Positions 18,313-53,222 are shown, numbered from the stretch's first letter. The stretch is 61,404 nucleotides of DNA from an uncultured Bacteroidia bacterium (GCA_964493765.1 CAZBPK010000117.1:1-61404); one strand, 5' to 3'. Numbers and translations are program-made. The notes: generated by a model not told the origin, from the letters alone.

Positions 18313-18436
18313 GGGCGTGTCCCTCACTAGGTTCGGGTCGGGCTGTTTCGGGCTTCGCTGTTCGCTACGGCAATCCTTTTTCCACTTTTTTCAAAAGCGT
18401 CAAAAGGCAGTGCTAAACCCTACACATCCCTCACGC
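18313..18436 (+). repeat. Dispersed structured repeat, copy 1 (REP-like / possibly Flavo-1-like)
   Basis: GGGCGTG...GGGTCGGGC...GGCAATCCTTTT...AAAAGGCAGTGC...ATCCCTCACGC; four further copies in the window. Confidence 0.9.
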
Positions 18437-18488
18437 TTTATTTTTTCATTTGAATTAAAAAAAACAATAAAAAAAATTTAAAAAAAAT

Positions 18489-18519
18489 TTGCACACAAAA
18501 AAAACTTAGTATAATTTTG
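18489..18519 (+). promoter_or_regulatory. Bacteroidota sigma-70 promoter (-33 TTG / -7 TAATTTTG) for tRNA-Gln
   Basis: TTG at 18489, 20-nt spacer, TAATTTTG at 18512; matches the TTG-N19-21-TAnnTTTG consensus. Confidence 0.8.
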
Positions 18520-18544
18520 CAACACTTTTCTAAAAAAGAAAAAC

Positions 18545-18615
18545 TGTCCGATGGTGTAACGGTAGCACAGAAGATTTTGGTTCTTTTAGTCAGGGTTCGA
18601 ATCCTTGTCGGACAA
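18545..18615 (+). tRNA. tRNA-Gln (anticodon TTG), CCA not encoded
   Basis: Acceptor stem TGTCCGA/TCGGACA, D arm GTGTAACGGTAGCAC, anticodon loop TTTTGGT, T loop GGTTCGAATCC. Confidence 0.96.
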
Positions 18616-18626
18616 CTTAAAACCTT

Positions 18627-18660
18627 AAAAATCCACTTTTTTATTAAGTGGATTTTTTTA
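18627..18660 (+). terminator. Hairpin terminator after tRNA-Gln
   Basis: AAAAATCCACTT / AAGTGGATTTTT inverted repeat followed by a T-run. Confidence 0.7.
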
Positions 18661-18716
18661 TTTCATGTATTGGGTTTTTGTATAATTCCAATCAAAATTT
18701 TATAGATATTTGTAAA

Positions 18717-19490
18717 ATGAAAATTCAAAACTTTCTGACAGCCCTTTTATTTATAACATTGACCAATCACCACAAACTTTTTTCCCAAATTAGTTTAAAA
18801 GATTCTTGTGCTAATCTAGGTTTTTTTCATTTTGGTGCAGGAATTGGTAATACCGCTGGAAACTGGAACAAAAAATATGGCATAATGCCTCAAGTTGATG
18901 TTGAAATAGGCTTCAAGTCAAAAAAAAATTGGTCTTTTACAGGCAACTTCGGTTTTATTTATACGGATAGAGTAAAAATTCGTACTCAACTATTCCAAGA
19001 TATTGACACTTTTGATGGTTTACTAATTGATACGAATGGAGAATTAGTTTTTCCTGATGTTACGGCGCAAGGTTGGGCTGGAGGAATTCGATTCGGAAAA
19101 ACTTTTTCCTCCTTATTTTGGAAAGACCCTAACCCTAATTCAGGTTTATTTGTTGAAGCTGGATATAAATTCATAAGGCATAAACTCAATATTCAAGTTC
19201 CATTAACCTTACCCATGATGCTCAATGATTATCTAAAAGGTTATGACCGTTTAACCTTTTCTCAAGGTGCAAATTTTATTTTGGGTTATCGATTTTTTAA
19301 CAATAAAAGATTTCTAAATTTTACTGCCTTTACTGAATTTGCAGTTTTTTACTCGCAAAATTTAAGACGTTTTAATTATGATACTCGGGCTTTTGATAAT
19401 CAAAAATCATTAGATGTTCTATCTAGCATTAAAATTATGTGGTGTTTACCATTATACCAACGTGCTCCTGAAAGTTTTTACTATTACTAA
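18717..19490 (+). CDS. Hypothetical outer membrane beta-barrel protein
   Basis: Signal-like N-terminus from ATG 18717; Gly/aromatic alternating strands. Confidence 0.65.
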   Translation: MKIQNFLTALLFITLTNHHKLFSQISLKDSCANLGFFHFGAGIGNTAGNWNKKYGIMPQVDVEIGFKSKKNWSFTGNFGFIYTDRVKIRTQLFQDIDTFDGLLIDTNGELVFPDVTAQGWAGGIRFGKTFSSLFWKDPNPNSGLFVEAGYKFIRHKLNIQVPLTLPMMLNDYLKGYDRLTFSQGANFILGYRFFNNKRFLNFTAFTEFAVFYSQNLRRFNYDTRAFDNQKSLDVLSSIKIMWCLPLYQRAPESFYYY

Positions 19491-19494
19491 ACCC

Positions 19495-20313
19495 ATGAAA
19501 CTTTTCTTCATTATTTTCTTTTGGCTGATTGAATTTTCTTTAAAAGCTCAAAGTCCTACACAGTTTAACAATCAACCCAAAAAACCTCAAAAACCCAAAA
19601 TTATCTATGAACTACATACCACTCATGTTCCCATATTTATTGGAAGTAGTATCATTTATTCTATAGGAAATAATTTAGTGAGAAAACAAACTCCCTTATT
19701 AGAAAATGATTTAGTATTTTTGAATAGAAATTCTGTCAATTCCATTGATAGGTTTGCAACTTACTTGTGGTCTCCAACTTTTTCCAGAATTTCTGATGCT
19801 ACAGTTATTTTAAGTGCGATGAGCACGCCACTTTTATTTTTTGACCCAAAAATTAAAAAAGAATGGTTTACTATTGGATTTATGTTTTTGGAAGCAACTG
19901 TTTTATCGTATGGAATTACTCAAACCACCAAAGGTTTAACCGATAGGTTAAGACCCTTTGTATATAATCCCATTGCACCATTAGAAAAAAAATTAGAACC
20001 TGATGCAAAGCATTCCTTTTTTTCGGGTCATACAGCCCTAACCGCAACTTATTCCTTTTTAACCTATAAAATTTATTCAGATTTTTATCCGAAATCTGAC
20101 TTAAAACCCTATTTTTTAGCTGGTGCTATTGGCTTACCCTTGCTCACCGCAACTTCTCGAGTTTTGGCAGGGAAACATTATCTTTCTGATGTACTCACTG
20201 CTTATGCTTTTGGGGCTTTAGTGGGTTATGGTTTACCTTTTTTGCACCTTAAAAAAAATAGACCGAACTCCCCAAGCTCCTCTATCAATATTTTGATTAT
20301 TCCAAGATTTTAA
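19495..20313 (+). CDS. PAP2 family phosphatase
   Basis: KGLTDRLRP, SFFSGH and SRVLAGKHYLSD motifs; ATG 19495 preferred. Confidence 0.88.
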   Translation: MKLFFIIFFWLIEFSLKAQSPTQFNNQPKKPQKPKIIYELHTTHVPIFIGSSIIYSIGNNLVRKQTPLLENDLVFLNRNSVNSIDRFATYLWSPTFSRISDATVILSAMSTPLLFFDPKIKKEWFTIGFMFLEATVLSYGITQTTKGLTDRLRPFVYNPIAPLEKKLEPDAKHSFFSGHTALTATYSFLTYKIYSDFYPKSDLKPYFLAGAIGLPLLTATSRVLAGKHYLSDVLTAYAFGALVGYGLPFLHLKKNRPNSPSSSINILIIPRF

Positions 20314-20340
20314 ATATTTTTGAAAATAAATTTCCTCAAA

Positions 20341-21369
20341 ATGAAAAAAATATTGCTTTTTTTTATATCAATACTTTTCATTGCTTGTAAACCTCAAAAA
20401 AAAGAAAATCCTTTTCCTGAAAAACTTTCTGAATGGAACTTCTTTCAAGATTTGACAAACTTAGTTCCTTCAGAAAAGGTTGTTCCTTATGACCTAAATA
20501 CACCCCTATTTACTGACTATGCAGAAAAAGCACGTTTTATTTATGTTCCAAATGGTTCAAAAATCATTTATAACGACACCAGTTTTTTTCATTTCCCGAA
20601 TGAATCCGTTATCATTAAGAATTTTTATTACTACCATGATGTAAATCTTCCAGAAAAAGGAAAAAAAATTATAGAAACTCGTTTATTATACAAAAAAAAT
20701 GGTTCTTGGATACCTTTAACTTATCAATGGAATGAAAATCAAAAAGATGCTGAAATCTTATATGCAGGTAATTATGTTCCCATTGAATGGAAAGACCATG
20801 AAGGAAAAACTCAAAAAATTGAATATAAAATTCCTAATTTGAATCAATGCAAAAGTTGTCATGAAAATCAAGGAGTTATTCAGCCAATTGGTATTAAAGC
20901 CAAGCATTTAAACAAAAATTTTGTTTACAATCATGGAGAAGAAAATCAATTATCGTATTGGCTAAAAAACAACCTATTAGAAGGTTTACCCTTGAATCAT
21001 CCCATACCTCAAATAGTAAATTATGAAGATTCTTCCAAAAATTTAAACGATAGAGCCAGGGCGTGGTTAGATATTAATTGCGCGCATTGCCATAATCCCA
21101 AAGGACCTGCAGCAACTTCAGGTTTATTTTTGAATAGTGAAGAAAATAATCCTGTTCATTTGGGAATTATGAAAAGCCCTGTTGCTGCTGGAAAAGGTAC
21201 AGGAGGAAACTCTTTTGATATAGTTCCTGGTAAACCCAATGAATCTATTTTATATTATCGCATGAATAGTAATGACCCCGGCGAAATGATGCCCGAACTC
21301 GGTAGAACCATGGTTCATAAAGAAAGCCTAAAATTAATTCATGACTGGATTAAAAATTTGAAACAATAG
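20341..21369 (+). CDS. SO2930-family diheme c-type cytochrome lipoprotein
   Basis: Lipobox ILFIAC; YDLNTPLFTDYAEKARF; CKSCH and CAHCH; MMPELGR. Confidence 0.85.
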   Translation: MKKILLFFISILFIACKPQKKENPFPEKLSEWNFFQDLTNLVPSEKVVPYDLNTPLFTDYAEKARFIYVPNGSKIIYNDTSFFHFPNESVIIKNFYYYHDVNLPEKGKKIIETRLLYKKNGSWIPLTYQWNENQKDAEILYAGNYVPIEWKDHEGKTQKIEYKIPNLNQCKSCHENQGVIQPIGIKAKHLNKNFVYNHGEENQLSYWLKNNLLEGLPLNHPIPQIVNYEDSSKNLNDRARAWLDINCAHCHNPKGPAATSGLFLNSEENNPVHLGIMKSPVAAGKGTGGNSFDIVPGKPNESILYYRMNSNDPGEMMPELGRTMVHKESLKLIHDWIKNLKQ

Positions 21370-21431
21370 GCATAATTTTTGCATATCTATTTTGTATATC
21401 TATTTTTTTTACATAAATATTTAAACGCTGA

Positions 21432-22226
21432 ATGTATCATCAAATTATTGAAAAACTCTTGCCTTCCATCCAAAAAACTGCAGAATTTATCAGTAAAGAA
21501 TTTATAAGTTTTGATCCTGCCAACATAGAAATTAAAGGTCATAATGACTTAGTTTCTTACGTGGATAAAACCGCTGAATCTATGCTGGAAGATGCATGCT
21601 TAAAAATTACTCCTAATGCAGGATTTATCAATGAAGAAACGGGTATCAAATCCCCTGATTCTGAGTTTGTTTGGATTATTGACCCCTTAGATGGAACTAC
21701 TAACTTTATGCAAAAAATTCCTGTTTTTGCCATTTCCATTGCTTTACAACATCAAGGAAATTTAGTTTTAGGAATTGTTCATGAAGTCAATCGTTTTGAG
21801 ACTTTTACAGCCATTAAAGGACAAGGGGCTTTTCTCAATGGAAAACCCATTAAAGTAACAAATGAAAAACAACTTTCACAAGTTGTAGTAGCTACTGGTT
21901 TTCCCTATTCTAATTTTTATAATCTACAAGATTATATGGAAATGTTTAAAGAATTTTTGTATAGTACGAGAGGTTTAAGGAGATTAGGCTCTGCCGCTGT
22001 AGATTTAGCTTTTACTGCCGCGGGGCGCTTTGGTGGTTTTTTTGAAGCCAATTTAAAACCTTGGGATATTGCAGCAGGTACATTAATTGTTCAAGAAGCT
22101 GGCGGTTTAGTAACTGATTATCATGGAAATCAAGATTGTGTTTTTGGCAATTCTATTTTAGCCTCTACCCCAATTATTCATGACCAAATGATGCAAATTA
22201 TTCAAAAAAACGTAAAAGTAAATTAA
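21432..22226 (+). CDS. suhB: Inositol monophosphatase family protein
   Basis: DLVSYVD, NEE, WIIDPLDGTTNF, RRLGSAAVDL, PWDIAAG. Confidence 0.9.
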   Translation: MYHQIIEKLLPSIQKTAEFISKEFISFDPANIEIKGHNDLVSYVDKTAESMLEDACLKITPNAGFINEETGIKSPDSEFVWIIDPLDGTTNFMQKIPVFAISIALQHQGNLVLGIVHEVNRFETFTAIKGQGAFLNGKPIKVTNEKQLSQVVVATGFPYSNFYNLQDYMEMFKEFLYSTRGLRRLGSAAVDLAFTAAGRFGGFFEANLKPWDIAAGTLIVQEAGGLVTDYHGNQDCVFGNSILASTPIIHDQMMQIIQKNVKVN

Positions 22227-22271
22227 GGGTAAATGTTCATGTATTGATTTTTTTGACTTTTTCATTTTTTT

Positions 22272-22302
22272 TTGAAAGTATATATTTTTCATAATATATT
22301 TG
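22272..22302 (+). promoter_or_regulatory. Bacteroidota sigma-70 promoter for the acylase gene
   Basis: TTG at 22272, 20-nt spacer, TATATTTG at 22295. Confidence 0.7.
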
Positions 22303-22315
22303 CAGAAAAAAAATA

Positions 22316-24466
22316 ATGTCAAAATTAAAGGTTTTATTTCTTATATTTAGCTTTTCACTTCTTAAAACTCATGGGCAAATTGAACCAGAAAATATTCAAA
22401 TCATTAGAGACCCATGGGGAGTACCTCATATCTACGGAAAAACAGATGCCGAGGCGGCTTACGGTTTGGCTTGGGCTCACTGTGAAGATGACTTCCCTAC
22501 CCTACAATATCAATTAATTCGTTACAAAGGTCGTGCTGGTGAATATGAAGGAATAAATGGAGCTTTGACTGATTTTTTCTATCATTACATCAAAACACAA
22601 GAAACCGTTGAAAAAGAATATAAGCATCTTTCTAAAGAATATTTAACTTTTTTGAATGGATATGTTCAAGGAGTGAATGATTATGCATCAAAACACCCTA
22701 AAGAAATTCTAATGAAGGGATTATTTCCCATAACTGACAAAGATATTCTGGGTGGCTATGTAATGACTACTGCAGCTATGGTGGGTTTACCTTACGCTTT
22801 AGATTACGTATTAAAAGGCAAAGCGGATGATTATATGTTTAGACCCGGCTCAAGAGCCGAACACAAATACAATGGAAAACCCATTCGTGGTTTAGAAAAC
22901 CCCTTTGACCATCAAAGCACTATGGGTTCTAATGCAATTGCAGTGCATCATTCCGCTGCAAAAGATAAAAAAAATCATATTGTTATCAATCCTCATATAG
23001 GATTAGATGATGTTATTCACTGGTATGAAGCACACATGGTAAGTGAAGAAGGACTAAATATTCTTGGTGCACTTTTTCCGGGTGCTACAAGCCCTGGCTT
23101 AGGTTCTACACCTCATCATGCTTGGGCTATGACTTTTAATTGGCCTGATTATGTGGATATTTACAGAATGGAACTCAATCCTAAAAACAAAAATCAGTAT
23201 TTATTTGATGGTCAATATTATGATTTTGAAAAGCGTAAAATCAAACTAAAAGTAAAAATTGCGGGGATACCTATTAAAGTAAAAAAAGTTGCTTATTGGT
23301 GCCACTATGGCCCTGCATATAAAACCAAAGATGGCAGAGTCTTTGCAACCCGACATGCAGCTAATGTAACTACCAAATCAGGTGAACAATGGTATAGAAT
23401 GGCTAAAGCACAAACTTTTGATGAGTTTAAAGAAGTTTTAAAAATGCGTAATATCCCTTTGTTTAATATCATTTATTCCGATAAAGACAACATTATGTAT
23501 TTTTTTAATGCTGCTTTACCCAAAAGAAACCCAAACTACAATTGGCAAAAAACTCTTCCCGGTAATACCTCTGAAACATTATGGAACGAATTTCTTACTT
23601 ATGAAGAACTACCCAAAGTAATCAATCCCCAATGTGGTTTTGTTTATAATACCAATAATTCCCCTTTTTACGCTACTTGCTCTCCAGATAACTGCGATAA
23701 AAATCAATTTGAAAATATTCATGCTTGGGATTGGAATCGCCAAAATAACAGAGCTTTACGCTTAGAGCAACTTTTGGGTGAACACTCTTCCTTTGATATG
23801 GATTTACTCAAAAAAATTAAATATGATGATAAATATCCCGTTAATGGTGGTATTTATAAAACCTATCAACAAATTTTTAACCTTGACCCCAACCAATATC
23901 CTGATATTAAAGATGCCATTGAACTTCTTAAAACTTGGAATTTAGGAACGGACACATTAAACAAAGTTTGTCCTTTATTAGTAGTTGCTTTTGATTTTAT
24001 TTTTACCAATACCAACTCTGGTTATGTTGAACTAGAAACTGGTATTTCTATCAGTGAAAAATTAATGGTTGATGCTATTCGTTATTCAAAAAAATGGTTA
24101 TTAAAACATTACAAAAAAATAGACCCAACTTTTGGTGAAGTGCAGCGAATTCGTAGAAAAGGGGCTAAAGAAAATTATGCAATTAGTGGTATGCCAGAAA
24201 TGTTATCTCCTATTGCTTCCAAAGTTATGAAAAAAGAAGGATATTTATTGCCTGTTAATGGGGATACATACATTCAGTTTGTAACTTTTGGAGTTAATGG
24301 TTTAGAAAAAATTGAAACTATTGTTCCTATGGGTGCTTCCAGAAGAGAAAACTCCCCTCATTATACTGACCAAATGCAATTATTTGCTCAAAGAAAAGTT
24401 AAATCTATGACCTTAAATAAAGAGGAAATCCTAAAAAACGCAGAAAAAGTGTATTCTCCTAAGTAA
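22316..24466 (+). CDS. Penicillin acylase family (S45 Ntn-hydrolase) protein
   Basis: Signal peptide; IIRDPWGVPHIYG; beta-chain start MG/SNAIAV; NPHI; AWAMTFNWPD; NSPHYTDQ. Confidence 0.9.
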   Translation: MSKLKVLFLIFSFSLLKTHGQIEPENIQIIRDPWGVPHIYGKTDAEAAYGLAWAHCEDDFPTLQYQLIRYKGRAGEYEGINGALTDFFYHYIKTQETVEKEYKHLSKEYLTFLNGYVQGVNDYASKHPKEILMKGLFPITDKDILGGYVMTTAAMVGLPYALDYVLKGKADDYMFRPGSRAEHKYNGKPIRGLENPFDHQSTMGSNAIAVHHSAAKDKKNHIVINPHIGLDDVIHWYEAHMVSEEGLNILGALFPGATSPGLGSTPHHAWAMTFNWPDYVDIYRMELNPKNKNQYLFDGQYYDFEKRKIKLKVKIAGIPIKVKKVAYWCHYGPAYKTKDGRVFATRHAANVTTKSGEQWYRMAKAQTFDEFKEVLKMRNIPLFNIIYSDKDNIMYFFNAALPKRNPNYNWQKTLPGNTSETLWNEFLTYEELPKVINPQCGFVYNTNNSPFYATCSPDNCDKNQFENIHAWDWNRQNNRALRLEQLLGEHSSFDMDLLKKIKYDDKYPVNGGIYKTYQQIFNLDPNQYPDIKDAIELLKTWNLGTDTLNKVCPLLVVAFDFIFTNTNSGYVELETGISISEKLMVDAIRYSKKWLLKHYKKIDPTFGEVQRIRRKGAKENYAISGMPEMLSPIASKVMKKEGYLLPVNGDTYIQFVTFGVNGLEKIETIVPMGASRRENSPHYTDQMQLFAQRKVKSMTLNKEEILKNAEKVYSPK

Positions 24467-24572
24467 TAATTGATATAAAGTTTTGGGCATGCCTCTTTAA
24501 TTTTTACTTTTAGAATTATTCTTATCATTTATTAAATTAGGCATTAAATTTGCATAGCTAACTTAAAAATTC

Positions 24573-24950
24573 ATGAAACTTTTTACCATTATAGGTCTTT
24601 TCGCTTTAGCATTCATTTTTATCCAATGCAATCCTTCTAAAAAAAACCAAAAAAGTACTTCTCAAGAAGCCAATTTAACAAAAGTAAGATTAAAAGTGGC
24701 TTTTATCAGTATAGGTCAAGGTATTAATTTTGAAGCAGCAAAGTATTTTCCTCAATTCATTGAAAAATTTAACAAAGAACAAAAAGTTACTTTAAAGTAT
24801 GAAATTGTTCCTTGGGGACGTGAAGGAGAATTAAACTATTGTTTTTATGAACAAAAGAAAATTAATGAGTTTATACTACAAGTTCAAAAGGAAATGAGTA
24901 AATATGAAAATGTAGAATTTCATGAAAATCCGTTAAACTGTGATCGATAA
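24573..24950 (+). CDS. Hypothetical lipoprotein
   Basis: Lipobox-like FIFIQC; FISIGQGIN and WGREGELNYC motifs. Confidence 0.7.
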   Translation: MKLFTIIGLFALAFIFIQCNPSKKNQKSTSQEANLTKVRLKVAFISIGQGINFEAAKYFPQFIEKFNKEQKVTLKYEIVPWGREGELNYCFYEQKKINEFILQVQKEMSKYENVEFHENPLNCDR

Positions 24951-24971
24951 ATTAGAATTGATTTTTTTCAT

Positions 24972-25448
24972 TTACAATGATTTGAATTGCTCAAAAGTTT
25001 CTTTACAGTCATGGCAATGGTGTATTGCTCTACATAATGTAGGACCAAAAGGGTTTAGTAATTGAGTATTTTTTGAATGGCATTTTGGGCACTCAACGTT
25101 CTGTAAACTTTTTAATAAATCTTCGGAAGACTTAGAAGGCTTCGCTAAACCAAATTCTTGTAATTGTTTTAACCCTTTTTCTGTAATAAAATCTGAAGAC
25201 CAAACTTTGTTATAATTAATTACAGCATGCGAAGCTATGCCTTTATTAAAAAGAACTTCTTCTACATTTTTTCGCATATATTCAATAGCTGGGCATCCAG
25301 CAAAAGTAGGAGTTAACTCTACCAAAACTTGCTGGTTTTCTTGAATTTGAACATCAGAAATAACCCCTAAATCAACTAATGAAATAGCTGGTATTTCTGG
25401 GTCTTTAACTTCCTCTAAGTATTCCAAAATCAAATCTTTGGTAATCAT
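24972..25448 (-). CDS. paaD: Phenylacetyl-CoA epoxidase subunit PaaD (PaaJ in other nomenclature)
   Basis: VKDPEIPAISLVDLG, TPTFAGCPA, CPKCHS...FGPTLCRAIHHCHDCKETFEQFK. Confidence 0.92.
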   Translation of the reverse strand: MITKDLILEYLEEVKDPEIPAISLVDLGVISDVQIQENQQVLVELTPTFAGCPAIEYMRKNVEEVLFNKGIASHAVINYNKVWSSDFITEKGLKQLQEFGLAKPSKSSEDLLKSLQNVECPKCHSKNTQLLNPFGPTLCRAIHHCHDCKETFEQFKSL

Positions 25449-25451
25449 AAT

Positions 25452-26216
25452 TTACCATTTTGCAGTTGGATCTATAACAAAAACTTCTGACATTTCGTTT
25501 ACAAGTTGCTCCAAGTGTTCAGAATGTTTACCTTCTCTACCTCCGTAATGCAAAGTTGGGTTTTCAATAATGGGAATCACAATAGGTGTTTTTTGTACAA
25601 TGGATTGAACTTCCTGAACCCATTGATTTTCAAGTTCTTTTTCTGAAACAATAAAACCTTCTTTTTCCAAAATAGCATGGTAATCAGCAACCTCAAATAA
25701 AGAAAATGCTAAAGGATAAGCAAAATTAAATGCGTTTTGCATACGAATACGAGCTTCTTCTCCTCCATTACAAAGTTGTTGAAACCAAGTAACTGCATGC
25801 ATGTAATGGTATTTTTCTTCACGAATTAACTTAGAAGCTAAATTTGCCAATGGCTCATATTTAGATTGACTTAACGCTTTTAAACGTATCATTTCTTGAA
25901 CATCATAGAATAAATGGCGAACTAAACTAAAATCATACTCACCAATAGGATATTCCACCAAATGGCAGCATTTAAACATTTTATAACTTCTATAAAAAGC
26001 CAAAGTATCAGGGTTTTGTTCTCCTAATTCATGAAGTAATAAATAAAATGCTTGTGCATGCCCAATTTCATCTTGAGCCATAGAGGCAAATGCAATATCT
26101 TCTTCTAAAATAGGACCAAAACCTGTCCATTCAGAATTTCTATGACCCATAATTAACTCGTCATCAGCTAACTGAAATAAATATTTTTTTAAGGCTTCTA
26201 AAACTTCTGGTTTCAT
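25452..26216 (-). CDS. paaC: Phenylacetyl-CoA epoxidase subunit PaaC
   Basis: LADDELIMGHRNSEW, EEDIAFASMAQDEIGHA, KLIREEKYH, HSEHLEQL; ATG 26216 preferred. Confidence 0.92.
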   Translation of the reverse strand: MKPEVLEALKKYLFQLADDELIMGHRNSEWTGFGPILEEDIAFASMAQDEIGHAQAFYLLLHELGEQNPDTLAFYRSYKMFKCCHLVEYPIGEYDFSLVRHLFYDVQEMIRLKALSQSKYEPLANLASKLIREEKYHYMHAVTWFQQLCNGGEEARIRMQNAFNFAYPLAFSLFEVADYHAILEKEGFIVSEKELENQWVQEVQSIVQKTPIVIPIIENPTLHYGGREGKHSEHLEQLVNEMSEVFVIDPTAKW

Positions 26217-26290
26217 AAACTTGTCAGGAAAATAAATAGCAAATATCAGTAATTTTATCGATTTATCCAAAAAATTGCCAATTTTGTTAC

Positions 26291-27289: not shown

Positions 27290-27296
27290 GTTTTCA

Positions 27297-27426: not shown

Positions 27427-27526
27427 AACTACGAATAAAAAATTCGTTTTATCCTTTCCACTTAAACATAACTTCATAAGAATTTGGATAAAATTACTTA
27501 TCTTTGCGTTTTGATAGTACATCTAA

Positions 27527-30714: not shown

Positions 30715-30741
30715 TTATTGATAGTAAAGCCACAAAGTTAT

Positions 30742-34309: not shown

Positions 34310-34349
34310 TTATCATGCAATAAAATTGCATTTATTTGCAATAATCCAA

Positions 34350-40634: not shown

Positions 40635-40643
40635 AAAATAATC

Positions 40644-42809: not shown

Positions 42810-42843
42810 ATAATTTGTAAATTTGTAACTTTAAAATTTGTTC

Positions 42844-43224: not shown

Positions 43225-43230
43225 ATTTGT

Positions 43231-44990: not shown

Positions 44991-45009
44991 TATTTCAATA
45001 GGATAAAAG

Positions 45010-45219: not shown

Positions 45220-45667
45220 TGAATTGTTTGTATAAATTTATAGGAACGATATTTAATGATTTTGGGCTTAAGGGTTTGGGTTTTATCCAATCAATATCTT
45301 TTTTTAACCAGATATATAATAAGCCCAAAGCCAAAACTATTATAAAAAACAAAATTTCAAATAAACTAAAATAATTCCATGAAGTGTTATAAGCTATAAT
45401 TTGCTTGTCAAAAAAAGAGAAAGCCCAAGGAAAAATTAAAATGAGTTCCACATCAAAAATTAAAAATACTAAACCCATAACATAAAATCGAATGTTAAAC
45501 TGGCTCCAAGCGTTTCCAACTGGATCTTCACCACATTCATAGTGAGTGTTTTTCTCAGGATTAGGTCTATGGGGTCTTAATAGCCAGGAAGTTAGTAATC
45601 CTAATATGATAAAAATCAATCCAAAAACAAAATATAATATACCCTTACCTAACTCTGTAATTTCCAT
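45191..45667 (-). CDS. nuoA: NADH-quinone oxidoreductase subunit A
   Basis: [28 protein letters not shown]; three TM segments; C-terminal extension. Confidence 0.92.
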
Positions 45668-45676
45668 TTTGTTACT

Positions 45677-46132
45677 TTATCTAACGTTAGTGATCTGAAA
45701 TTGGTGATTAAACTTTAAATAAAAGATTTCATTAGAAGAAATTGAATCCAATTGATTAGAATAAATAATGGGTATTTCATTGTTTTTTAATGAATTAATT
45801 AAAGGTATAAAGGCTATTGTATCTTGTGATTGCCAAAAAAATAAAATACTATCATTTTCTATAACAGCAATTTTGCTAACCGCTTGAAGATGTGGAGCAA
45901 TCTTTTGTAATTTCTTTATGGGCATAAATGCAATACATTCAGAGATATTATTTTTATTCCAATCTAAACCATTTAATGCTACTTTAAAGCCTTTACCCAA
46001 AACTTTTCTAGCATAAATTACATTTCTATCTTGCCAACTGGGATTTTTTTTAAACCAATAAATTGCGTAGTAAAAAACTCCAACTAAAAGAATACTCAAT
46101 AGAACCACTAATAAACCCATATTTTTTGTCAT
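45677..46132 (-). CDS. Hypothetical protein with N-terminal TM anchor
   Basis: 151-aa ORF in a same-strand run, overlapping the upstream stop. Confidence 0.6.
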   Translation of the reverse strand: MTKNMGLLVVLLSILLVGVFYYAIYWFKKNPSWQDRNVIYARKVLGKGFKVALNGLDWNKNNISECIAFMPIKKLQKIAPHLQAVSKIAVIENDSILFFWQSQDTIAFIPLINSLKNNEIPIIYSNQLDSISSNEIFYLKFNHQFQITNVR

Positions 46133-46872
46133 AAAATAGGATTTAAGATTTTACCAGAATGAATATAAGCAATCAAAGTATCATCAATTAAAGATTTATT
46201 TAGCATCTCAATATGCTTTTCATGATGAGTATCTGTTCCTACAAAATCCACTAAATTATTTTTCATAAGAAATTTTGCAATGGATTTGGGTTTTTCTGTA
46301 TAATAACCCGATAAAGAATTAATATTGATTTGAAACAATAAACCTAGTTCCTTTAGTTCAAAATATTGTTCTTTATGATTCCATAGGTATAAATATCTTT
46401 CAGGATGAGCAAAAATAGGTTTATAACCTTTCATTAAAATATCAAAAATAATTTGTTTAAATCGATCAGGTTTAATATGGTGTGAAGTTTCAATAAGTAC
46501 AAAATTTTGCTTGCTAAAAGACAATAATCCACTATTGAGGTGATAGGAAAAGCCTTCATCTAGCATATATTCTGCTCCGTATTCTAATTGGATAGAAATA
46601 TTTTTTGAGGACAAAAAACTAAGTAGAGATTCATAGTTTTTTTTAATTGTATCACTTGTATTAGGGTAATTTATATTGATATGAGGAGTAGTAATAAGCT
46701 TTTTATAACCCAAATCTTTTAAAGCTTGAATTAAAAATTCACTTTCTTCAAAATTTTGAGAACCATCATCTAAAGCAGGAATTAAATGTGAATGTATATC
46801 GTGTTGTAAAAGTTCAACAACTTTCTTGGGAGTATTTTCTTTTTTAAATATAGATTTAAATAGATTGATCAT
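46129..46872 (-). CDS. PHP-family protein-tyrosine phosphatase (CpsB/YwqE type)
   Basis: DIHSHLIPALDDG, TTPH, AEY, AHPERY, GTDTHH; next to wzc. Confidence 0.9.
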   Translation of the reverse strand: MINLFKSIFKKENTPKKVVELLQHDIHSHLIPALDDGSQNFEESEFLIQALKDLGYKKLITTPHININYPNTSDTIKKNYESLLSFLSSKNISIQLEYGAEYMLDEGFSYHLNSGLLSFSKQNFVLIETSHHIKPDRFKQIIFDILMKGYKPIFAHPERYLYLWNHKEQYFELKELGLLFQININSLSGYYTEKPKSIAKFLMKNNLVDFVGTDTHHEKHIEMLNKSLIDDTLIAYIHSGKILNPIL

Positions 46873-46874
46873 AT

Positions 46875-49217
46875 TTAAGATTTAAAGTAATTTTTAATCT
46901 TTTTTAATAATGAAACATTTTCGTTTTCAACATAATAACCAGAATTGTACCCGTAACCATAGCCATAGCCATAACCATAGCCATAGCCATATCTTGAAGT
47001 GTTTGCTTCTAAATAATTTACAAGTAAATATAAGTGTTTTAAATCATGTTCATTTTTTAATACTTCTGCATTTTTCAAAAAGTTTTTATCAGATTTATTA
47101 GCACGATAAACATACAAAGCAATATTCGCTAATTTAAGCACAGGTATAGTATCGGTAACAAGACCAATTGGAGCTGTATCACAAACAATGATATCATAAT
47201 CCGATTTTAATCTTTCTAATAAATCAACAAATTCTTGAGAATTAAGCATTTCTGAAGGATTTGGAGAAATTGGACCGGAAGTAATTATGTCTAAATTAGG
47301 GTAACCTGAAAATTGAACAAAATCTTTAAAATCCAATTTAGGGTTGACTAACAAATTAGATACTCCTTTTTCATTTGATAAATTAAAAGCTAAATGTAAA
47401 CGGGGTTTTCTTAAATCTAAATCTAATAAAATGATTTTTTTATCCAGTAGAGATAAAACACCAGCCGTATTTACTGAAATAAAAGTTTTTCCTTCACCAG
47501 AAGTTGTTGAGGTTATAGACAAAATTGGTTTCTCAATTTTTGCTAATGAAAACATAATATTTGCCCGAAGAGTTCTAAAGCACTCTGTAAGGTGAGAACG
47601 AGGATTTGTGATTACTTGCATACTTGCATCGTCAGAAACTTGGTTAGACCTAATAACAGTACCTAAAATGGGTATATCAGTAGATGCTTCAACTTCTTCA
47701 CGGGTGGTCAATGTTCTATCGGATAAATATTTAATCAAAATAAATCCAAACCCTAAAACTAAGCCAATAAAAGCAGTTATAACATAAATTTGTTTAGGAT
47801 TAGGAGAAATTGGGATTCTGGGCATAGTAGGTTTATTTAACACCCTACTGTTAGAAACAATAGAAGCCTTTTGGATAGAGGTTTCCATTTTTTTATCTAA
47901 AAGAGAATAATAAATTTTTTCATTGAGTTCAAAGGGCTTTTTATAAGTAGATAAATCTCTCTCAAGAGATGGAATGCTTGATAGGTTTATATTTGCTTCA
48001 GCAGATTTTTGCTTAATATAAATAAGTTTTTCTTTATTTTTTTCTTTTGCATTTTCAATACTTTCTAAAAGAACTTTCTTGGATTCAGAAACTTGGTCAT
48101 TAATTTTTTGTATTAAAGGGCTATTGATAGTATGTTTTTTGAGTAAAATAGACTTTTGAACCAATAATTGGTTTAACTGATTGATATTCTGAACGAGAAT
48201 TGGGTCAATCAATCCTTCCATATTAGGAGCAAAAACAATATCTTTATCTTGAGGATTAATTTTTAATTCAACATACTTTTCTAAATCAGTCAGAGTTTTA
48301 TCCGAGAGTTTAATATTGGAAATTTCAGTTTCAAATTGAGAAATTGTAGTTAAAATGCTTTGTTTCTTTGATTGTATTGCAGGGATTTCATATGTTTTTT
48401 CAAATGATTCTAAATCAGTTTCAGACTTTTGTAGTTTTTGAGAAAAATCACTAATTAAAGTATCAATAAACTGAATTTTTTGGTCTAAAGAACGTTTTTT
48501 TATAGTAAGTTCATCTTCTAAATATACTTTTAATAAATCTTGTAAAAAGTCATAAGCTCTTTCGGGAATTACATCTGTTACAACGATTTTAAAAATTCCG
48601 GGTTTATAAGGAGCAAAGTTAATGGTTTTTGAATAGTAAGAAAATGCTTCTTCTGAAGATTGTACATAAACATAATAAAGTTCAGAAGAAATAACCCCTT
48701 TCTTGCTAACTAGAATATCACTACCTTTATACTTAATTAAGTTATCAAATAAACCTTTGATAGTATCTTGCTGATTTACCCAAAGGATAAATTCTTTTTG
48801 GTTAATGGGTTTAATATTGATGTAAGTATTATATAATTTAAAATTGGTACTATCGTACCTGAAGATTATAGGACAATTTTTATAAAACTCTGTTTTTCCA
48901 ATTTTTCCAATTGTAAAATATTTGATATCTAATTTTAATGATGAAATTACTTTATTGATAATTTCATTAGATTTGATAACTTCAAGTTGTGCCTCTAACT
49001 CCTCTCCTACTTGATCTAAAGCTTTTTTTTCTAATGTAATTTCTGATTGTAACTCAATTTTTAGTACTGATTCTGATTGATACTGATATTCAACATATCT
49101 TAAGTAAATAAAACCACAAAAAACCCAAAAAAATGTAAAAATTATTGGAACATAAAAATATTTCCATAAATATTTTAAAAGTCTTTGAATTTCAAAATTT
49201 TGGTTATTTTTATCCAT
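46875..49217 (-). CDS. wzc: Polysaccharide chain-length regulator / BY-kinase
   Basis: Two TM segments, periplasmic coiled coil, Walker A STTSGEGKT, DLDLRKP, DTAP, C-terminal Tyr cluster. Confidence 0.93.
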   Translation of the reverse strand: MDKNNQNFEIQRLLKYLWKYFYVPIIFTFFWVFCGFIYLRYVEYQYQSESVLKIELQSEITLEKKALDQVGEELEAQLEVIKSNEIINKVISSLKLDIKYFTIGKIGKTEFYKNCPIIFRYDSTNFKLYNTYINIKPINQKEFILWVNQQDTIKGLFDNLIKYKGSDILVSKKGVISSELYYVYVQSSEEAFSYYSKTINFAPYKPGIFKIVVTDVIPERAYDFLQDLLKVYLEDELTIKKRSLDQKIQFIDTLISDFSQKLQKSETDLESFEKTYEIPAIQSKKQSILTTISQFETEISNIKLSDKTLTDLEKYVELKINPQDKDIVFAPNMEGLIDPILVQNINQLNQLLVQKSILLKKHTINSPLIQKINDQVSESKKVLLESIENAKEKNKEKLIYIKQKSAEANINLSSIPSLERDLSTYKKPFELNEKIYYSLLDKKMETSIQKASIVSNSRVLNKPTMPRIPISPNPKQIYVITAFIGLVLGFGFILIKYLSDRTLTTREEVEASTDIPILGTVIRSNQVSDDASMQVITNPRSHLTECFRTLRANIMFSLAKIEKPILSITSTTSGEGKTFISVNTAGVLSLLDKKIILLDLDLRKPRLHLAFNLSNEKGVSNLLVNPKLDFKDFVQFSGYPNLDIITSGPISPNPSEMLNSQEFVDLLERLKSDYDIIVCDTAPIGLVTDTIPVLKLANIALYVYRANKSDKNFLKNAEVLKNEHDLKHLYLLVNYLEANTSRYGYGYGYGYGYGYGYNSGYYVENENVSLLKKIKNYFKS
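46947..46991 (-). repeat. Coding hexamer tandem repeat (TATGGY)6-TACGGG-TAC encoding the Wzc (YG)n cluster
   Basis: Two perfect copies of TATGGCTATGGCTATGGT read from the sequence. Confidence 0.85.
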
Positions 49218-49220
49218 AAA

Positions 49221-49985
49221 TTACCTAAAGCTTTGTAATCTGAAATAAATAATTAAAATACCTCCAATTGTAGAAACTATGGATGATAATTGTAACCAAG
49301 GTAATACATTTCTTGTAAATAACGCAATTGGTTTGGGTCTTAAATATATTATATCCCCATTTTGAACAATCAATTCCTCAGCTTTTAAGATGTTTTGTTT
49401 CGTTAAATCCACCCAAATAATTTTCGGTTTTTTTAAATCTCCTCTTATAATTTTCAATCTATCTATTTTGGCAAAATTATTTATACCTCCAGCAAGTCCT
49501 ATTACTTCCATTAAATGCATTCTATCATGGGTTAGTGAAATTGCACCTGGCTTATTAAATTCTCCAAATACATAAACCTTCATGGATTTATTGATTACGT
49601 TAATCTTAGGATCTACATAAAAGTTGGCATATTTTTCTTCTAAAGTATCAATTAGTTCATAGGATGTTAAACCTTCTACTTTCAATTTCCCTAATAAGGG
49701 TAATAAAATCTCTCCATTATTATTTACGAAATAATCTTTTGTAACAGTTGCAACCTCCTCAGTTATAGGTTGATTGATATACTCTATAGAAATATTATCA
49801 CCAATTTTAATTTTGGGTATGTAATATGTTGTGTCTTTAGAAGAAGGATATCTAGTAATACTTTTACCTTCTACTTTTAATGATTTATATAAATCCTTTT
49901 CATTATCTGTCTGTAGCAACATCATTTTACCACAACCAGATGCAAGAATAAAAATTATAATAATTATTAGTGAGTGAATTTTCAT
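49221..49985 (-). CDS. wza: Polysaccharide export lipoprotein (Wza/SLBB)
   Basis: Lipobox ILASGC; IKIGDNISI, GEILLPLLGKLKVEGLT, VFGEFNKPG, EVIGLAGG. Confidence 0.88.
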   Translation of the reverse strand: MKIHSLIIIIIFILASGCGKMMLLQTDNEKDLYKSLKVEGKSITRYPSSKDTTYYIPKIKIGDNISIEYINQPITEEVATVTKDYFVNNNGEILLPLLGKLKVEGLTSYELIDTLEEKYANFYVDPKINVINKSMKVYVFGEFNKPGAISLTHDRMHLMEVIGLAGGINNFAKIDRLKIIRGDLKKPKIIWVDLTKQNILKAEELIVQNGDIIYLRPKPIALFTRNVLPWLQLSSIVSTIGGILIIYFRLQSFR

Positions 49986-51016
49986 TTTTTGGTAAAATTT
50001 TTAACTTGTTTAACAAGCTCTATAACATTTTCTCTAGGGGTATCTGGATAAAGACCATGACCTAAATTTACAATATGATTTACAGGAAGTGATTCTAAAA
50101 ATTGATTTACTTTTTGATTTAAATAGTTTTTTCCTGCATATAACAAACAAGGATCTAAATTGCCTTGAGTAGTTTTGCTAATTTGTTTTTTTGAAAAATC
50201 CAAAGGGACATTCCAATCTAAACCTATAGCATTACAATTTATGTTGTTAATTTTGTTCAAGGAAAAATTTGCACCTTTAGCAAATACAATTTTAGGTACT
50301 TCATGAATAGAATCACATATTTTTTGTATATAAGGTAAAGACCAAGTTTCAAAGTCTTCTTTAGATAAAATGCCAGCCCAAGAGTCAAAAATTTGAATTA
50401 CATTGACCCCTTTTTCAATTTGACCTTTCAAATAGATAATGCTAGCATCGGTAATTAGGTCTAAAAATTGGTGGGCAAACTCAGGATCTTGATATAAAAT
50501 TCTTTTAGCTTGAGAAAAAGTTTTAGAACCTGAACCTTCTGTACAATAAGCAAAAATTGTCCAAGGAGCACCACAAAATCCAATTAAAGGTATTTTGTTT
50601 TGTAGTTTTTCCTTAGTGATTTCAATAGCTTCTAAGGTAAATCGTAAATTTGATTGATAAAGATTTGGTAATTGTAATTTTTTTAAGTCTTCTTTATTTC
50701 TAATGGTATTAGGGAAAAATGGGCCTTTTTTTTCTTCCATGATATAATCACAATTCATGGATTCTGGCACAACCAAAATATCAGAAAAAATAATTGCAGC
50801 ATCTACCTCTAAAATATCCACCGGTTGGAGAGTAACCTCAGCAGCATTTTCAGGATTTTCTAATAAACCTTTAAAACTTCCAGCTTTTTCCCTAACTTTT
50901 CTGTATTCCACTAAAAATCTACCTGCTTGCCTCATAAGCCAAATTGGGTATCTCTCTGTTTTTTCCTGATTTAAAACTTTTAGCAAAAGGTCATTCTCAA
51001 TGTTTTGAATTTTCAT
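49982..51016 (-). CDS. hemE: Uroporphyrinogen decarboxylase
   Basis: PIWLMRQAGR, AIIFSDIL, QIFDSWAG, QGNLDP, NLGHG. Confidence 0.97.
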   Translation of the reverse strand: MKIQNIENDLLLKVLNQEKTERYPIWLMRQAGRFLVEYRKVREKAGSFKGLLENPENAAEVTLQPVDILEVDAAIIFSDILVVPESMNCDYIMEEKKGPFFPNTIRNKEDLKKLQLPNLYQSNLRFTLEAIEITKEKLQNKIPLIGFCGAPWTIFAYCTEGSGSKTFSQAKRILYQDPEFAHQFLDLITDASIIYLKGQIEKGVNVIQIFDSWAGILSKEDFETWSLPYIQKICDSIHEVPKIVFAKGANFSLNKINNINCNAIGLDWNVPLDFSKKQISKTTQGNLDPCLLYAGKNYLNQKVNQFLESLPVNHIVNLGHGLYPDTPRENVIELVKQVKNFTKK

Positions 51017-51102
51017 TTAGATAATTACTTGCAAAATTATTTATTTTTTTGATATGTTGAAATACTAATTTTTTTTTGTATTTTTGTGATGTTAGAAAAT
51101 TT

Positions 51103-52350
51103 ATGCAGCAACACTTAGAATCAGCATCAGAAGGTAGTCATTTTCAGAAATATTCTATTTCTCCTTCACTCCTACAAGTTACGCAAGAGTCCGCTGTTCA
51201 AGTTAAAAAAGAAAAAAAAATTATTAGAATTGGAATACCAAGAGAATCCTCTTCACAAGAAAGAAGAGTTCCTCTTACACCTGCAGTAGTTGATGTTTTG
51301 GTAAATAATGGTGCTGAAGTTTTTGTTGAACATGATGCGGGTCTAGACGCAGGTTTTTTAGATAGAGATTATTCAGAAGCTGGTGCATTTATAACTTATT
51401 CTAAACCTGAAGTATTTGAAAAAGCTGATATTATCATTAAAATTGAAAGACCCAATTATCAAGAAATTGAATATCTAAGAAATCGTCAAATTTTAATTTC
51501 TGCATTGCATTTGGGAAGTTTAACATCAGAATTTTTAAAAACGATTACTCAAAAAAATATTACAGCAATTGGATATGAATTTTTAAGAGGCGAAGATGGG
51601 AGTATTCCTATTATGCAAATGATGTCAGAAATAGCTGGAATTAATGCTATTCATATTGCTGCTGAACTTTTAACCTCTAATAAAGGAGGCAAAGGTATGC
51701 TTTTAGGAGGAATTACAGGCGTTCCACCTTCTATCGTTACAATTATTGGTGCAGGAACTGTAGGCTTAAATGCCGCACGTTCTGCTTTAGCACTTGGTGC
51801 TACGGTTAAAGTTATTGATGAAGAAGTATATAAATTAAGACGTTTGGAAGAAAAGCTGGGTACAAAAATTTATACTGCTGTTACACAACCTCAATTTATT
51901 GAAGAAGCTGTTATTTCCTCCGATGTTATAATTGGTGCAATCTATAAACCGGGACATAGAACACCTTGTTTGGTTTCTGAAAATATGATTAGCAAGATGA
52001 AAGAAGGTTCAATTGCCATTGATATTGCAATAGACCAGGGAGGTTGTTTTGAAACTTCTAAACCCACTACCCATGAAAATCCCATTTTTGTGAAACACGG
52101 TGTAATTCATTATTGTGTACCCAACATTGCTTCTCGTGTGCCTTATACAGGCTCAATTGCTTTAAGTAATATTTTGGGTTCCATTATATTGAAAATTATT
52201 CATTATGGAGGTATAGGCGTTTTACAAAATTCCACAACCATTAAAAATGGCATCTACACTCATCATAAGCATATCACCAACCGCTACTTAGCGAGAATTT
52301 TTGGAATGGATTATATTGATATTAACTTGTTGCACGCCACCAATTTATGA
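51103..52350 (+). CDS. ald: Alanine dehydrogenase (Bacteroidota type with N-terminal extension)
   Basis: IGIPRE..QERRVPLTP, MSEIAG, IIGAGTVG, DIAIDQGGCFETS, HYCVPNI; ATG 51103 preferred. Confidence 0.9.
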   Translation: MQQHLESASEGSHFQKYSISPSLLQVTQESAVQVKKEKKIIRIGIPRESSSQERRVPLTPAVVDVLVNNGAEVFVEHDAGLDAGFLDRDYSEAGAFITYSKPEVFEKADIIIKIERPNYQEIEYLRNRQILISALHLGSLTSEFLKTITQKNITAIGYEFLRGEDGSIPIMQMMSEIAGINAIHIAAELLTSNKGGKGMLLGGITGVPPSIVTIIGAGTVGLNAARSALALGATVKVIDEEVYKLRRLEEKLGTKIYTAVTQPQFIEEAVISSDVIIGAIYKPGHRTPCLVSENMISKMKEGSIAIDIAIDQGGCFETSKPTTHENPIFVKHGVIHYCVPNIASRVPYTGSIALSNILGSIILKIIHYGGIGVLQNSTTIKNGIYTHHKHITNRYLARIFGMDYIDINLLHATNL

Positions 52351-52353
52351 TGT

Positions 52354-53073
52354 ATGTCCTATTTAAGAAAATTGTGGAATGAAATTTCTGAAGACTGGAA
52401 AAATATTTTTATCCAACAATTTTCTATTCCTGTTTTAAAATTTTCCAATTGGAATACTTTATTTATTTCTCAAAAGTTTTTAGAAAATATTTATTTCTCT
52501 GAATCTATTGATATTCAGAACTTTAAAGTTAATGAACTGTCTGGTTTAAAACTCACTCCCTACCTCAAAAAACTTCGCATTTCCAATACTATCCTTGATA
52601 ATCTTGACGGAATTGAAAAATTATATTTTTTAACAGAATTGATTGTTACTAAAAATGTCATAAAAAATATTTATCCAGTATATTTTCTTAAAAATTTGAA
52701 TTTATTGGACATTTCTTACAATCAAATTTCTTATTTATTTCCGCTTTTCTGCTCAAACTTAGAAGTTTTGTACTGCAATCATAATAAAATCAAATCTTTA
52801 GATGGATTAGAAAATGTTCAAAACTTAAAAATAATAGATGCTTCTTACAATAAATTAACGGAATTAGATTTTACTTATTGGAAAAATTCACCTTATGAAA
52901 TTTGGGTAGCTCATAACAAAATTGAAAAATTAATGGGATTTGATGGGCATTTTACTCAAACCCTTGAAATATTAGATTTATCTCATAATCCTATTTACTT
53001 AGAGGATTTACCTTTAAATTTTCAAAATGAATTAATACATGAAGGTATAAAAGAGAGACAATCACAGAATTAG
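52354..53073 (+). CDS. Leucine-rich repeat protein
   Basis: Repeated LxxLxxxxNxI motifs (LDISYNQI, LYCNHNKI, IDASYNKL, LDLSHNPI). Confidence 0.85.
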   Translation: MSYLRKLWNEISEDWKNIFIQQFSIPVLKFSNWNTLFISQKFLENIYFSESIDIQNFKVNELSGLKLTPYLKKLRISNTILDNLDGIEKLYFLTELIVTKNVIKNIYPVYFLKNLNLLDISYNQISYLFPLFCSNLEVLYCNHNKIKSLDGLENVQNLKIIDASYNKLTELDFTYWKNSPYEIWVAHNKIEKLMGFDGHFTQTLEILDLSHNPIYLEDLPLNFQNELIHEGIKERQSQN

Positions 53074-53093
53074 CAGTAATTAATGCGAGTTAT

Positions 53094-53222
53094 GCGTGAG
53101 GGAAGCGGAGGGCACATAGTGGCACTGCCTTTTTTCGCTTTTGAAAAAAGTGGAAAAAGGATTGCCGAAGCGAAGCGGAGCCCGTAGCCAGCCCGACCCG
53201 CAGTGAAGCAAGGGACACGCCC
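53094..53222 (-). repeat. Dispersed structured repeat, copy 5
   Basis: Reverse complement GGGCGTGTCCC...TTCCCTCACGC; begins right after the TGA TGA of ORF 53226..53513. Confidence 0.9.

Follow-up and report, generated by a model that had tools for sequence, protein, structure and literature searches.

A 61,404-nucleotide stretch of DNA from an uncultured Bacteroidia bacterium (GCA_964493765.1 CAZBPK010000117.1:1-61404; called here the window, meaning that whole stretch) carries five copies of a GC-rich repeat that belongs to a structured repeat family with genuine covariation. The family is uncatalogued, as the searches made returned neither an Rfam model nor a literature match for it. Comparison with a sister lineage showed that the old copies of the window have been kept intact against an A/T mutation pressure that eroded their orthologues. 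On balance, we lean toward viewing the element as an interspersed repeat defined by its fold, which would have been inserted in an ancestor and maintained in this lineage via a trans-acting factor that recognizes the folded single strand.

Five copies and a covarying fold

The copies of the window are as follows, with their scores against the covariance model R1.

18313..18436, + strand: copy 1, 124 nt, 5′ end 21 nt past the murA stop codon (18291); 117.5 bits
27297..27426, + strand: copy 2, 130 nt, 5′ end 7 nt past the stop codon of the glycosyltransferase gene GT9 (27289); 131 bits
34177..34309, + strand: copy 3, 133 nt, 5′ end 7 nt past the nth stop codon (34169); 122.4 bits
35504..35625, − strand: copy 4, 122 nt, 5′ end 17 nt past the stop codon of an M23 peptidase gene (35643); 126 bits
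53094..53222, − strand: copy 5, 129 nt, 5′ end 3 nt past the stop codon of a 95-amino acid (aa) hypothetical open reading frame (ORF; 53226); 125.4 bits

The repeats had been picked out in an earlier reading of the same DNA (the original prediction), and their positions were confirmed by two kinds of search. With at most one mismatch allowed, five matches to each of the core words AAAGGCAGTGC and TCCCTCACGC were obtained in the window, versus shuffle means of 0.9 and 0.5, respectively, and a three-block pattern gave five matches where none was expected. Run with filters off at E ≤ 10, R1 matched the five copies at 117 to 131 bits and nothing else in the 61 kb, showing that the window holds no degenerate remnants. 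The distances of 21, 7, 7, 17 and 3 nt from the preceding stop codons, with all five copies in the sense of the gene concerned, likewise agreed with the ORF list and the sequence. In the window, which has a GC content of 30.5%, no intergenic island other than these copies reaches 55% GC.

In copy 2, taken as the reference, the fold comprises the closing helix P1 (GCGTG/CACGC), the hairpin H1 closed by CCC/GGG, the helices P2 (GGG/CCC), P3 (TGC/GCA), P4 (GGG/CCC) and P5 (GGCA/TGCC), the apical stem P6, and a small hairpin, H3, located between P5 and P4. Family-wide, P1 reads GCGYN/NRCGC. P2, P3 and P4 form a long arm with the conserved junction sequence TCGGGCTGCTNCGGGCTTCGCT ... CCCTCCGCATCCCT, and the variable parts are H1, the apical arm P5/P6 and the optional hairpin H3. 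There are at least 27 conserved pairs in seven helices in the 122- to 133-nt copies of the window. The stems proposed originally (GCGTG/CACGC, GGG/CCC, GGCA/TGCY and CCTTTT/AAAAGG) are present in the copies, as are the G.U pairs of copies 1 and 4 and the apical variant common to copies 1, 2 and 5. The change in P6 of copy 4 (T-A to G-C, giving the apical stem CCTTTG/CAAAGG) had been taken to be compensatory, rightly so, and we found two more such changes, C-G to T-A in H1 of copy 3 and C-G to T-A in P3 of copy 1 (TGC/GCA to TGT/ACA). Copy 1 also lacks H3.

Covariation, proposed at the outset as a check, was found throughout the family. In an alignment of 100 distinct copies that was itself fitted to the model, 96.2% of the pair cells were canonical, versus 43 to 55% when partners were slid by one to three columns, and 19 of the 27 pairs had changed on both sides; none of 500 shuffles reached any of these measures. 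The 5′ strands of P2 to P4 lie inside the search pattern, so that their invariance is partly by construction. The closing helix P1 occurs in five compensatory versions (GCGTG/CACGC, GCGTT/AACGC, GCGCG/CGCGC, GCGCA/TGCGC and GCGAT/ATCGC), and H1 ranges from a 3-bp stem up to a 17-bp stem with a 75-nt A/T-rich loop that holds a small hairpin of its own.

Outside the window, R1 recognized at least about 130 copies, in metagenome contigs, metagenome-assembled genomes (MAGs) and IMG/VR viral contigs of 30 to 64% GC. A scan of species-representative genomes by pattern gave at least four loci, all those listed coming from two uncultured Bacteroidia MAGs, and a scan of metagenome contigs with GGTCGGGCTGCTNNGGGCTTCGCT gave at least 120 loci. 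Scanning IMG/VR with a core word located copies in contigs of 52 to 63% GC; true members number about eight in 2.9 million viral contigs. Six of the ten new loci of a second viral scan were discarded as chance matches within coding sequence. Family members are 98 to 320 nt long and have five to seven helices and a multibranch junction. Their hairpins vary at three or four positions; they differ in H1, H3 and the apical arm, the last often with nested repeat modules. Their termini are GGGCGYN and NRCGC, and where GTAG occurs, in some copies, it is internal and on the opposite strand.

A 98-nt subfamily with P1 GCGTT/AACGC lies within a ~250-bp unit (about 30 loci, L013-L121, e.g., L015:3570-3810). 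This unit is bounded by terminal inverted repeats of ~28 bp (TAGTGTTCCATTTTGG.../...AAAATAGAACACTA), with TA on either side, and it resembles an IS630/Tc1-mariner MITE (a miniature transposable element with inverted repeats). Because some copies of the subfamily have the core without the shell, the core is the cargo of a MITE there.

Two further observations bear on the modular build of the element. At hot-spring loci (L016, L019, L049, L059, L075 and others), the modules AACTCACCCCCTTCCCCTCTCTTTTGAAAAAGAGAGGGGCG and (A)ATTCCACCAACTTCGTTGGTGGCTATTCAT stand directly 3′ of the element, and a third repeat (CGTCATTGCGAACGAAGTGAAGCAATCTC ... GAGATTGCTTCGGGC...CGCAATGACG) is nested in the apical arm in hot-spring contigs; the modules and the element make up mosaics like BIMEs (interspersed mosaic elements of bacteria). 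In two related MAGs, the element occupies the same site past an orthologous 595- to 597-aa gene (80% identical; L002:6513-6649 and L004:4571-4695). The cores of these two copies are near-identical, and their H1 and apical hairpins are wholly different.

Searches with cmscan against Rfam 15 (4,227 families) gave no match for the window at the gathering threshold, for copies 1, 3 and 4 at E ≤ 10, or for eight outside loci at E ≤ 1. The termini had been likened to those of Flavo-1 (RF01705), a Bacteroidetes-associated candidate structured RNA of unknown function (PMC2864571). That resemblance did not survive, because RF01705 was part of the searched library and yielded no match even at permissive E-values. 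No match to copy 4 was obtained by blastn among PLSDB plasmids and INPHARED phages. In the full-text literature, the core words gave chance or 16S-primer matches only, and keyword searches for a description of the element led to general papers on repetitive extragenic palindromes (REPs) and REP-associated tyrosine transposases (RAYTs), from which the element itself is absent.

Insertion, maintenance and decay at orthologous sites

The outgroup MAG GCA_026003415.1 (L137/L138; GT9 77% identical) keeps the gene order PaaD-PaaA/GT9-uvrA-DUF952. Its GT9-uvrA spacer is empty and measures 54 nt, versus 237 nt with the element in the window, showing that the element is an insertion. The original prediction had envisaged an inserted element and a comparison of empty with filled sites, and this empty site bears out the insertion. 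As also claimed there, no target-site duplication was visible at the five copies, and no transposase was found among the ORFs of at least 90 aa in the window; these ORFs also yielded no reverse transcriptase or HUH domain.

In the sister lineage, the aa identity of which to the window is 96% for MurA, 89% for GT9 and 93% for the desaturase, three of the sites could be compared. The site of copy 2 (L135/L136) holds a decayed copy that scores 22 bits, has a GC content of 41% and retains the same 5′ flank (TTTGAGTTTCA, then GGGCG). The copy at the site of copy 1 is decayed to 9 bits; it is orthologous, since the private variants of copy 1, namely, the TGT strand of P3 and GCTAAACC without H3, are still common to both. 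At the site of copy 4 (L134), the flanks are collinear and enclose a 26-nt remnant that consists of 16 nt from the 5′ end followed directly by 10 nt from the 3′ end. The presence of decayed or deleted copies at the orthologous sites of the sister indicates that the insertions are older than the split of the two species. Other relatives had no copies in 63 kb and in 46 kb.

Over the two decayed copies, the window has G or C where the sister has A or T at 28 positions and the reverse at 3, whereas substitution counts in the flanks are symmetric (4:3, 5:3 and 10:8). Copy 1 was not overwritten by gene conversion, given that it has kept its locus-specific variants. The all-or-none preservation of the copies by lineage points to a factor acting at the level of the lineage.

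Both decayed sister copies (L135:4551-4620 and L139:7200-7260) contain ~22-nt A/T-rich insertions at the same site after GCTG[CT]TACG, and in both GGGTCGGGC has become G[GA]GTCAGG[CT]. These features were either present in the ancestral variant already or passed between the two loci by sequence exchange. Downstream of copy 1, a sigma-70-like match (TTTGCA-16-TATAAT, 18488-18515) precedes the tRNA-Gln(ttg) gene (18545-18616, + strand; 109 nt from the copy), and a hairpin with a T-run lies 3′ of this gene at 18627-18657. In the sister lineage, where the element upstream has decayed, the stretch from the promoter to the tRNA-Gln gene is nonetheless near-identical.

Copy number was estimated from run X1, the metagenome that contains 92% of the words of the window. 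Depth over the element was ~200 times that of single-copy flanks, and contigs broke at every copy. Some 200 copy-equivalents agree with the density in the window, 5 per 61 kb, extrapolated to a genome of 2 to 3 Mb.

Placement, orientation and strand

All five copies lie at gene ends. By Pfam, the upstream neighbors include a MurA-type EPSP_synthase fold, Glyco_transf_9, HhH-GPD (nth) and Peptidase_M23, and the 95-aa ORF has no family. An exact look-up of the MurA protein of the window returned no record. Copies 3 and 5 sit between convergent genes, with 40 nt from the 3′ end of copy 3 to the stop codon of a desaturase-family gene and 20 nt from that of copy 5 to the stop codon of a leucine-rich repeat gene (53073). 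The start codon of uvrA is 100 nt beyond the 3′ end of copy 2, and that of the desaturase-family gene (35417) is 86 nt beyond the 3′ end of copy 4. Occupied junctions in the window number two of the five convergent, three of the 48 tandem and none of the divergent ones, in keeping with the intergenic location at gene ends that had been proposed. That all five copies are in sense and next to the nearest stop codon has a chance of ~1/32 under random orientation, which is suggestive but weak because the pattern was picked after looking.

The wider family behaves differently with respect to orientation. We analyzed 74 independent outside copies (duplicates collapsed), sampled with a sequence pattern blind to orientation, against ORFs of at least 80 aa. 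The 5′ end faced a same-strand stop codon in 31 cases and an opposite-strand start codon in 32, and in tandem contexts 22 copies were antisense versus 7 in sense (p = 0.008). The rule that the element always follows a stop codon in sense therefore fails as a property of the family outside the window. At one locus (L047), two antisense copies even lie between closely spaced co-directional genes, 32 to 48 nt past one stop codon and 20 to 38 nt before the next start codon.

Other regularities of placement did extend beyond the window. Outside copies for which both neighbors were called comprised 4 in divergent, 29 in tandem and 14 in convergent contexts, and the element avoids divergent promoter regions. 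The 3′ end faced a gene start within 300 nt in 7 outside copies and a stop in 36 (p about 9e-6). From a sense copy to the next start codon, the gap is at least 112 nt outside the window and 86 to 109 nt for its three tandem copies. Most copies have the 5′ flank ttATTT, with A at −4 in 31 of 50 and T at −3 to −1 in 36 to 39 of 50, and 35 of 50 have A as the first base of the 3′ flank; these flanking bases (ttATTT and the 3′ A) could belong either to the target or to the element.

As for transcription termination, a consensus terminator scan flagged none of the closing helices, and a T-run follows copy 1 alone (TTTATTTTTT). We rejected the identification of the element with an intrinsic terminator, because 35 of 50 copies have A, and not a T-run, at the start of the 3′ flank. 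Two AT-rich hairpins were read from the sequence just beyond copies 2 and 3:

27431..27453, + strand: AT-rich hairpin and T-run (ACGAAT-AAAAAA-ATTCGT-TTTAT), 4 nt past copy 2
34315..34337, between convergent genes: AT-rich hairpin (ATGCAAT-AAA-ATTGCAT) followed by TTATTT, 5 nt past copy 3

The first looks like a terminator, which would place copy 2 between a stop codon and a terminator. It went unflagged because the scan needs three G-C pairs. The second also looks terminator-like and could work in both directions.

With regard to the strand on which the fold might act, the gene-sense strand folded with z scores of −0.6 to +0.2 relative to shuffles, versus −1.0 to −3.7 for the opposite strand, and with the consensus pairs enforced the opposite strand was more stable by 6 to 16 kcal/mol. 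A raw count of wobble pairs (100 G.T versus 25 A.C) was dropped as a strand test, because the 5′ strands of P2 to P4 were part of the exact search pattern and only their partners were free to vary. Outside P2 to P4, the count was 23 versus 19; P5 additionally has a conserved basal G.T (48 to 1). In metatranscriptome contigs of a related hot-spring locus, which are unstranded and may contain DNA, the repeats occurred in proportion to DNA copy number.

Candidate mechanisms and known repeat systems

In the reading toward which we lean, the identity of the family would reside in its conserved fold rather than in terminal inverted repeats. A folded single strand, DNA or RNA, would be recognized by a trans-acting factor kept in the lineage of the window and lost in the sister. 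The same factor may both have spread the element and account for its maintenance, as proposed by analogy with REP and REPIN populations and their RAYT. Placement past stop codons would reflect a preference for A/T-rich sites, seen in the ttATTT flank, together with selection against hitting genes or promoters. No translation-coupled mechanism would be needed for such placement, and the uniform sense orientation in the window would be a feature of the lineage or of sampling.

A number of observations weigh against this proposal. No mobilizing enzyme was present among the window ORFs of at least 90 aa, and all-versus-all clustering of 459 flanking ORFs yielded housekeeping families and spurious ORFs across repeats but no recurrent transposase-like ORF. 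There was no fresh filled/empty polymorphism in the population: over 19 kb, the contigs of four runs ended at breaks or were joined through repeats, and nothing else was seen. The preservation of each copy with its locus-specific variants agrees better with a function at the level of the host than with maintenance that is purely selfish. Known substrates of HUH transposases are less elaborate than this fold, and the interleaving of + and − copies within 1.3 kb does not fit the replication-strand-specific insertion of IS200/IS605 elements. No motif is shared between the element and the REPs published for RAYT subclass 2.6 of the Bacteroidetes. Lastly, most outside copies were sampled by a pattern covering a segment of the core, so that conservation of this segment is partly by construction.

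The main rival, which is the model of the original prediction and a possibility that we regard with some doubt, is that of a domesticated cis-acting RNA module of the 3′ untranslated region (UTR), transcribed with the upstream gene and either protecting or defining the mRNA 3′ end or affecting translation termination where it lies very near the stop codon. Selection for such an RNA role would explain placement and conservation alike, and copy-by-copy purifying maintenance is what a host function predicts. The sense orientation of all window copies 3 to 21 nt past stop codons speaks for it, as does the same orientation of L001, L002 and L004, the closest three of the outside relatives for which an upstream gene was called. 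Copies 2 and 3 would be transcribed, since they lie between a stop codon and a terminator-like hairpin, and both the polarity of the 3′ end and the gaps to the next start codons fit a polar effect exerted by the sense strand. However, the orientation relative to the 5′ neighbor is random in the family at large, tandem copies being mostly antisense and the pair at L047 entirely so. The gene-sense strand moreover folds like its shuffles whereas the opposite strand is the more stable one, and the T-run is confined to copy 1. The metatranscriptome contigs, in which repeats track DNA copy number, would agree with transcription, but they are unstranded and possibly include DNA.

A second rival is a functional single-stranded DNA site, resembling an origin of transfer (oriT) or an ssi/Frpo site and recognized by an HUH relaxase or by a primase or RNA polymerase. 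The opposite strand of the element contains repeated GCGAAGC units, and d(GCGAAGC) forms unusually stable DNA mini-hairpins. Such a site would originally belong to phages and to conjugative or integrative elements, and it would later have been dispersed in Bacteroidia chromosomes. Members in GC-rich contigs are single-copy and often lie in mobile contexts, though these are few. In L151 (10473-10610), 45 nt separate a member with P1 GCGAT/ATCGC from the start of a TrwC-type relaxase/helicase gene downstream of it, and the position just upstream of the relaxase gene is the usual one for oriT. Another copy adjoins a RadC gene (L152), one is 174 nt downstream of a tyrosine integrase gene (L098), two are near HTH_36 replication-type proteins (L006 and L008), and one is in a RecT-bearing, prophage-like contig (L005). 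These few cases provide a lead to an HUH enzyme and a route for horizontal spread. We nonetheless find a single-stranded DNA site improbable. The relaxase-adjacent case is single, other GC-rich copies adjoin housekeeping genes (sucD-like, metH, an SSF symporter and PNPOx), true members are scarce in viral contigs, and neither a nic-site consensus nor promoter boxes were identified in the element. To our knowledge, there is also no oriT or ssi site that occurs in ~200 chromosomal copies. Descent from a MITE of a DDE transposon, with terminal inverted repeats and target-site duplications, mobilized by an insertion sequence elsewhere and with an incidental fold, draws on the 98-nt subfamily inside its TA-flanked unit. 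It is very improbable, and largely refuted for the window copies, which, like most others, have only the 5-bp P1 in place of such inverted repeats and lack the duplication. The core of the subfamily also occurs without the MITE shell, and, as covariation extends over 19 of 27 pairs, constraint must act on the fold itself. That the five copies resemble each other by chance or through an assembly artifact has a negligible probability, as shuffles are expected to give no three-block match and independent assemblies and runs carry the family. Integron attC sites were also considered and rejected, because the termini do not fit RYYYAAC ... GTTRRRY and the neighbors are housekeeping genes rather than cassettes.

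A broader proposal would draw several of these strands together into a new class of structured element, made of a multi-helix scaffold with swappable hairpins. Its home would be in phages and in conjugative or integrative elements, and in some Bacteroidia it would have been amplified or domesticated to ~200 individually selected copies. It would act strand-specifically, as an RNA 3′-end or insulator module or as the site of an HUH enzyme. We consider this unlikely as a whole and put it forward as speculation.

Set beside known repeats, the element has most likely the lifestyle of REP/BIME or structured-MITE repeats, but its anatomy differs (a 100- to 300-nt multibranch fold, conserved junctions and interchangeable hairpins). 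Like the REPs and BIMEs and the REPIN-RAYT systems of enterobacteria and Pseudomonas, it is extragenic, GC-rich and folded, is present in hundreds of copies, and lacks target-site duplications. It also resembles REP/BIME sequences in being enriched between convergent and co-directional genes, in avoiding divergent promoters and in forming mosaics with other modules in some genomes. REPIN populations persist only alongside their RAYT and decay after its loss, and the element likewise has intact populations in one lineage and decaying ones in the sister. Enterobacterial REPs affect mRNA stability; they are located in 3′ UTRs (PMC3733652).

The differences from classical REPs are marked. The element is a 98- to 320-nt multi-helix fold, whereas a REP is a single palindrome of 20 to 40 nt. 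It has neither a GT[AG]G nor a CGTC foot, and no RAYT was found in the 61-kb window or among the ORFs that flank outside copies. Its core is conserved across hosts of 30 to 64% GC, whereas REP families are usually species-specific. In the Bacteroidetes, TnpA(REP) subclass 2.6 (RAYT group 5) is associated with REPs that lack a GTAG foot, have “atypical secondary structures” and occur in further copies elsewhere in the genome (PMC6006769). The element is like them in its host phylum and in the missing GTAG foot. These REPs are, however, simple hairpins of 24 to 35 nt, such as GCTAGCGCGAGCGTCCCGCTCGTG (Quentin et al. 2018, Table S1; PMC6006769), and the core words of the element do not occur in the supplement of that paper.

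The Correia/NEMIS repeats of Neisseria, the ERIC/IRU sequences of enterobacteria and the RPE of Rickettsia affect mRNA processing and stability. The element is comparable to them in a length of 100 to 150 nt, in its putative cotranscription with neighbors and in its long fold. Those repeats, however, have long terminal inverted repeats and, for Correia, TA duplications, whereas the element has a 5-bp closing helix and no duplication, and what is conserved in it is an internal junction and not the ends. With Flavo-1, it has in common the association of a structured candidate with Bacteroidetes, and the two are set apart by the lack of a cmscan match. Palindrome-associated elements of the IS200/IS605 group (PATEs) are similar in lacking duplications, in having a short conserved sequence, ttATTT, next to one end (here the 5′ one) and in having folded ends, which imply single-strand recognition. 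Unlike them, the element occurs in opposite orientations within 1.3 kb (copies 3 and 4), has no TnpA or TnpB nearby, and folds as a single integrated structure, where PATEs have two subterminal hairpins.

The interspersed repeats of Bacteroidota have been little charted, and this family spans hosts of 30 to 64% GC as well as viral and mobile contigs. It offers a tractable case of the question whether REP-like repeats are junk, selfish replicators or tools of the host. Given the three orthologous sites in intact and decayed states, the 28:3 asymmetry and the empty site, phylogenetic profiling could identify the putative trans-acting partner. The polarity of the 3′ end yields a concrete prediction that is open to a reporter assay.

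Several outside loci have features of their own. In two IMG/VR contigs, a long C/T-rich stretch of high GC content with CTTCGC-like units lies downstream of the element (L008:9600-12000 and L006:7015-7112); it contains no convincing ORF, the long ORFs called there being low-complexity translations. One of these viral contigs also has a sub-threshold match to the glmS ribozyme on the − strand (L006:2490-2649), at 30.9 bits versus a gathering threshold of 37 (E = 0.002). In a further contig (L125:3235-7426), methionine synthase is encoded by two same-strand ORFs ~700 nt apart, one with the homocysteine S-methyltransferase and pterin-binding domains and the other with the B12-binding and activation domains, and an antisense copy of the element lies between them.

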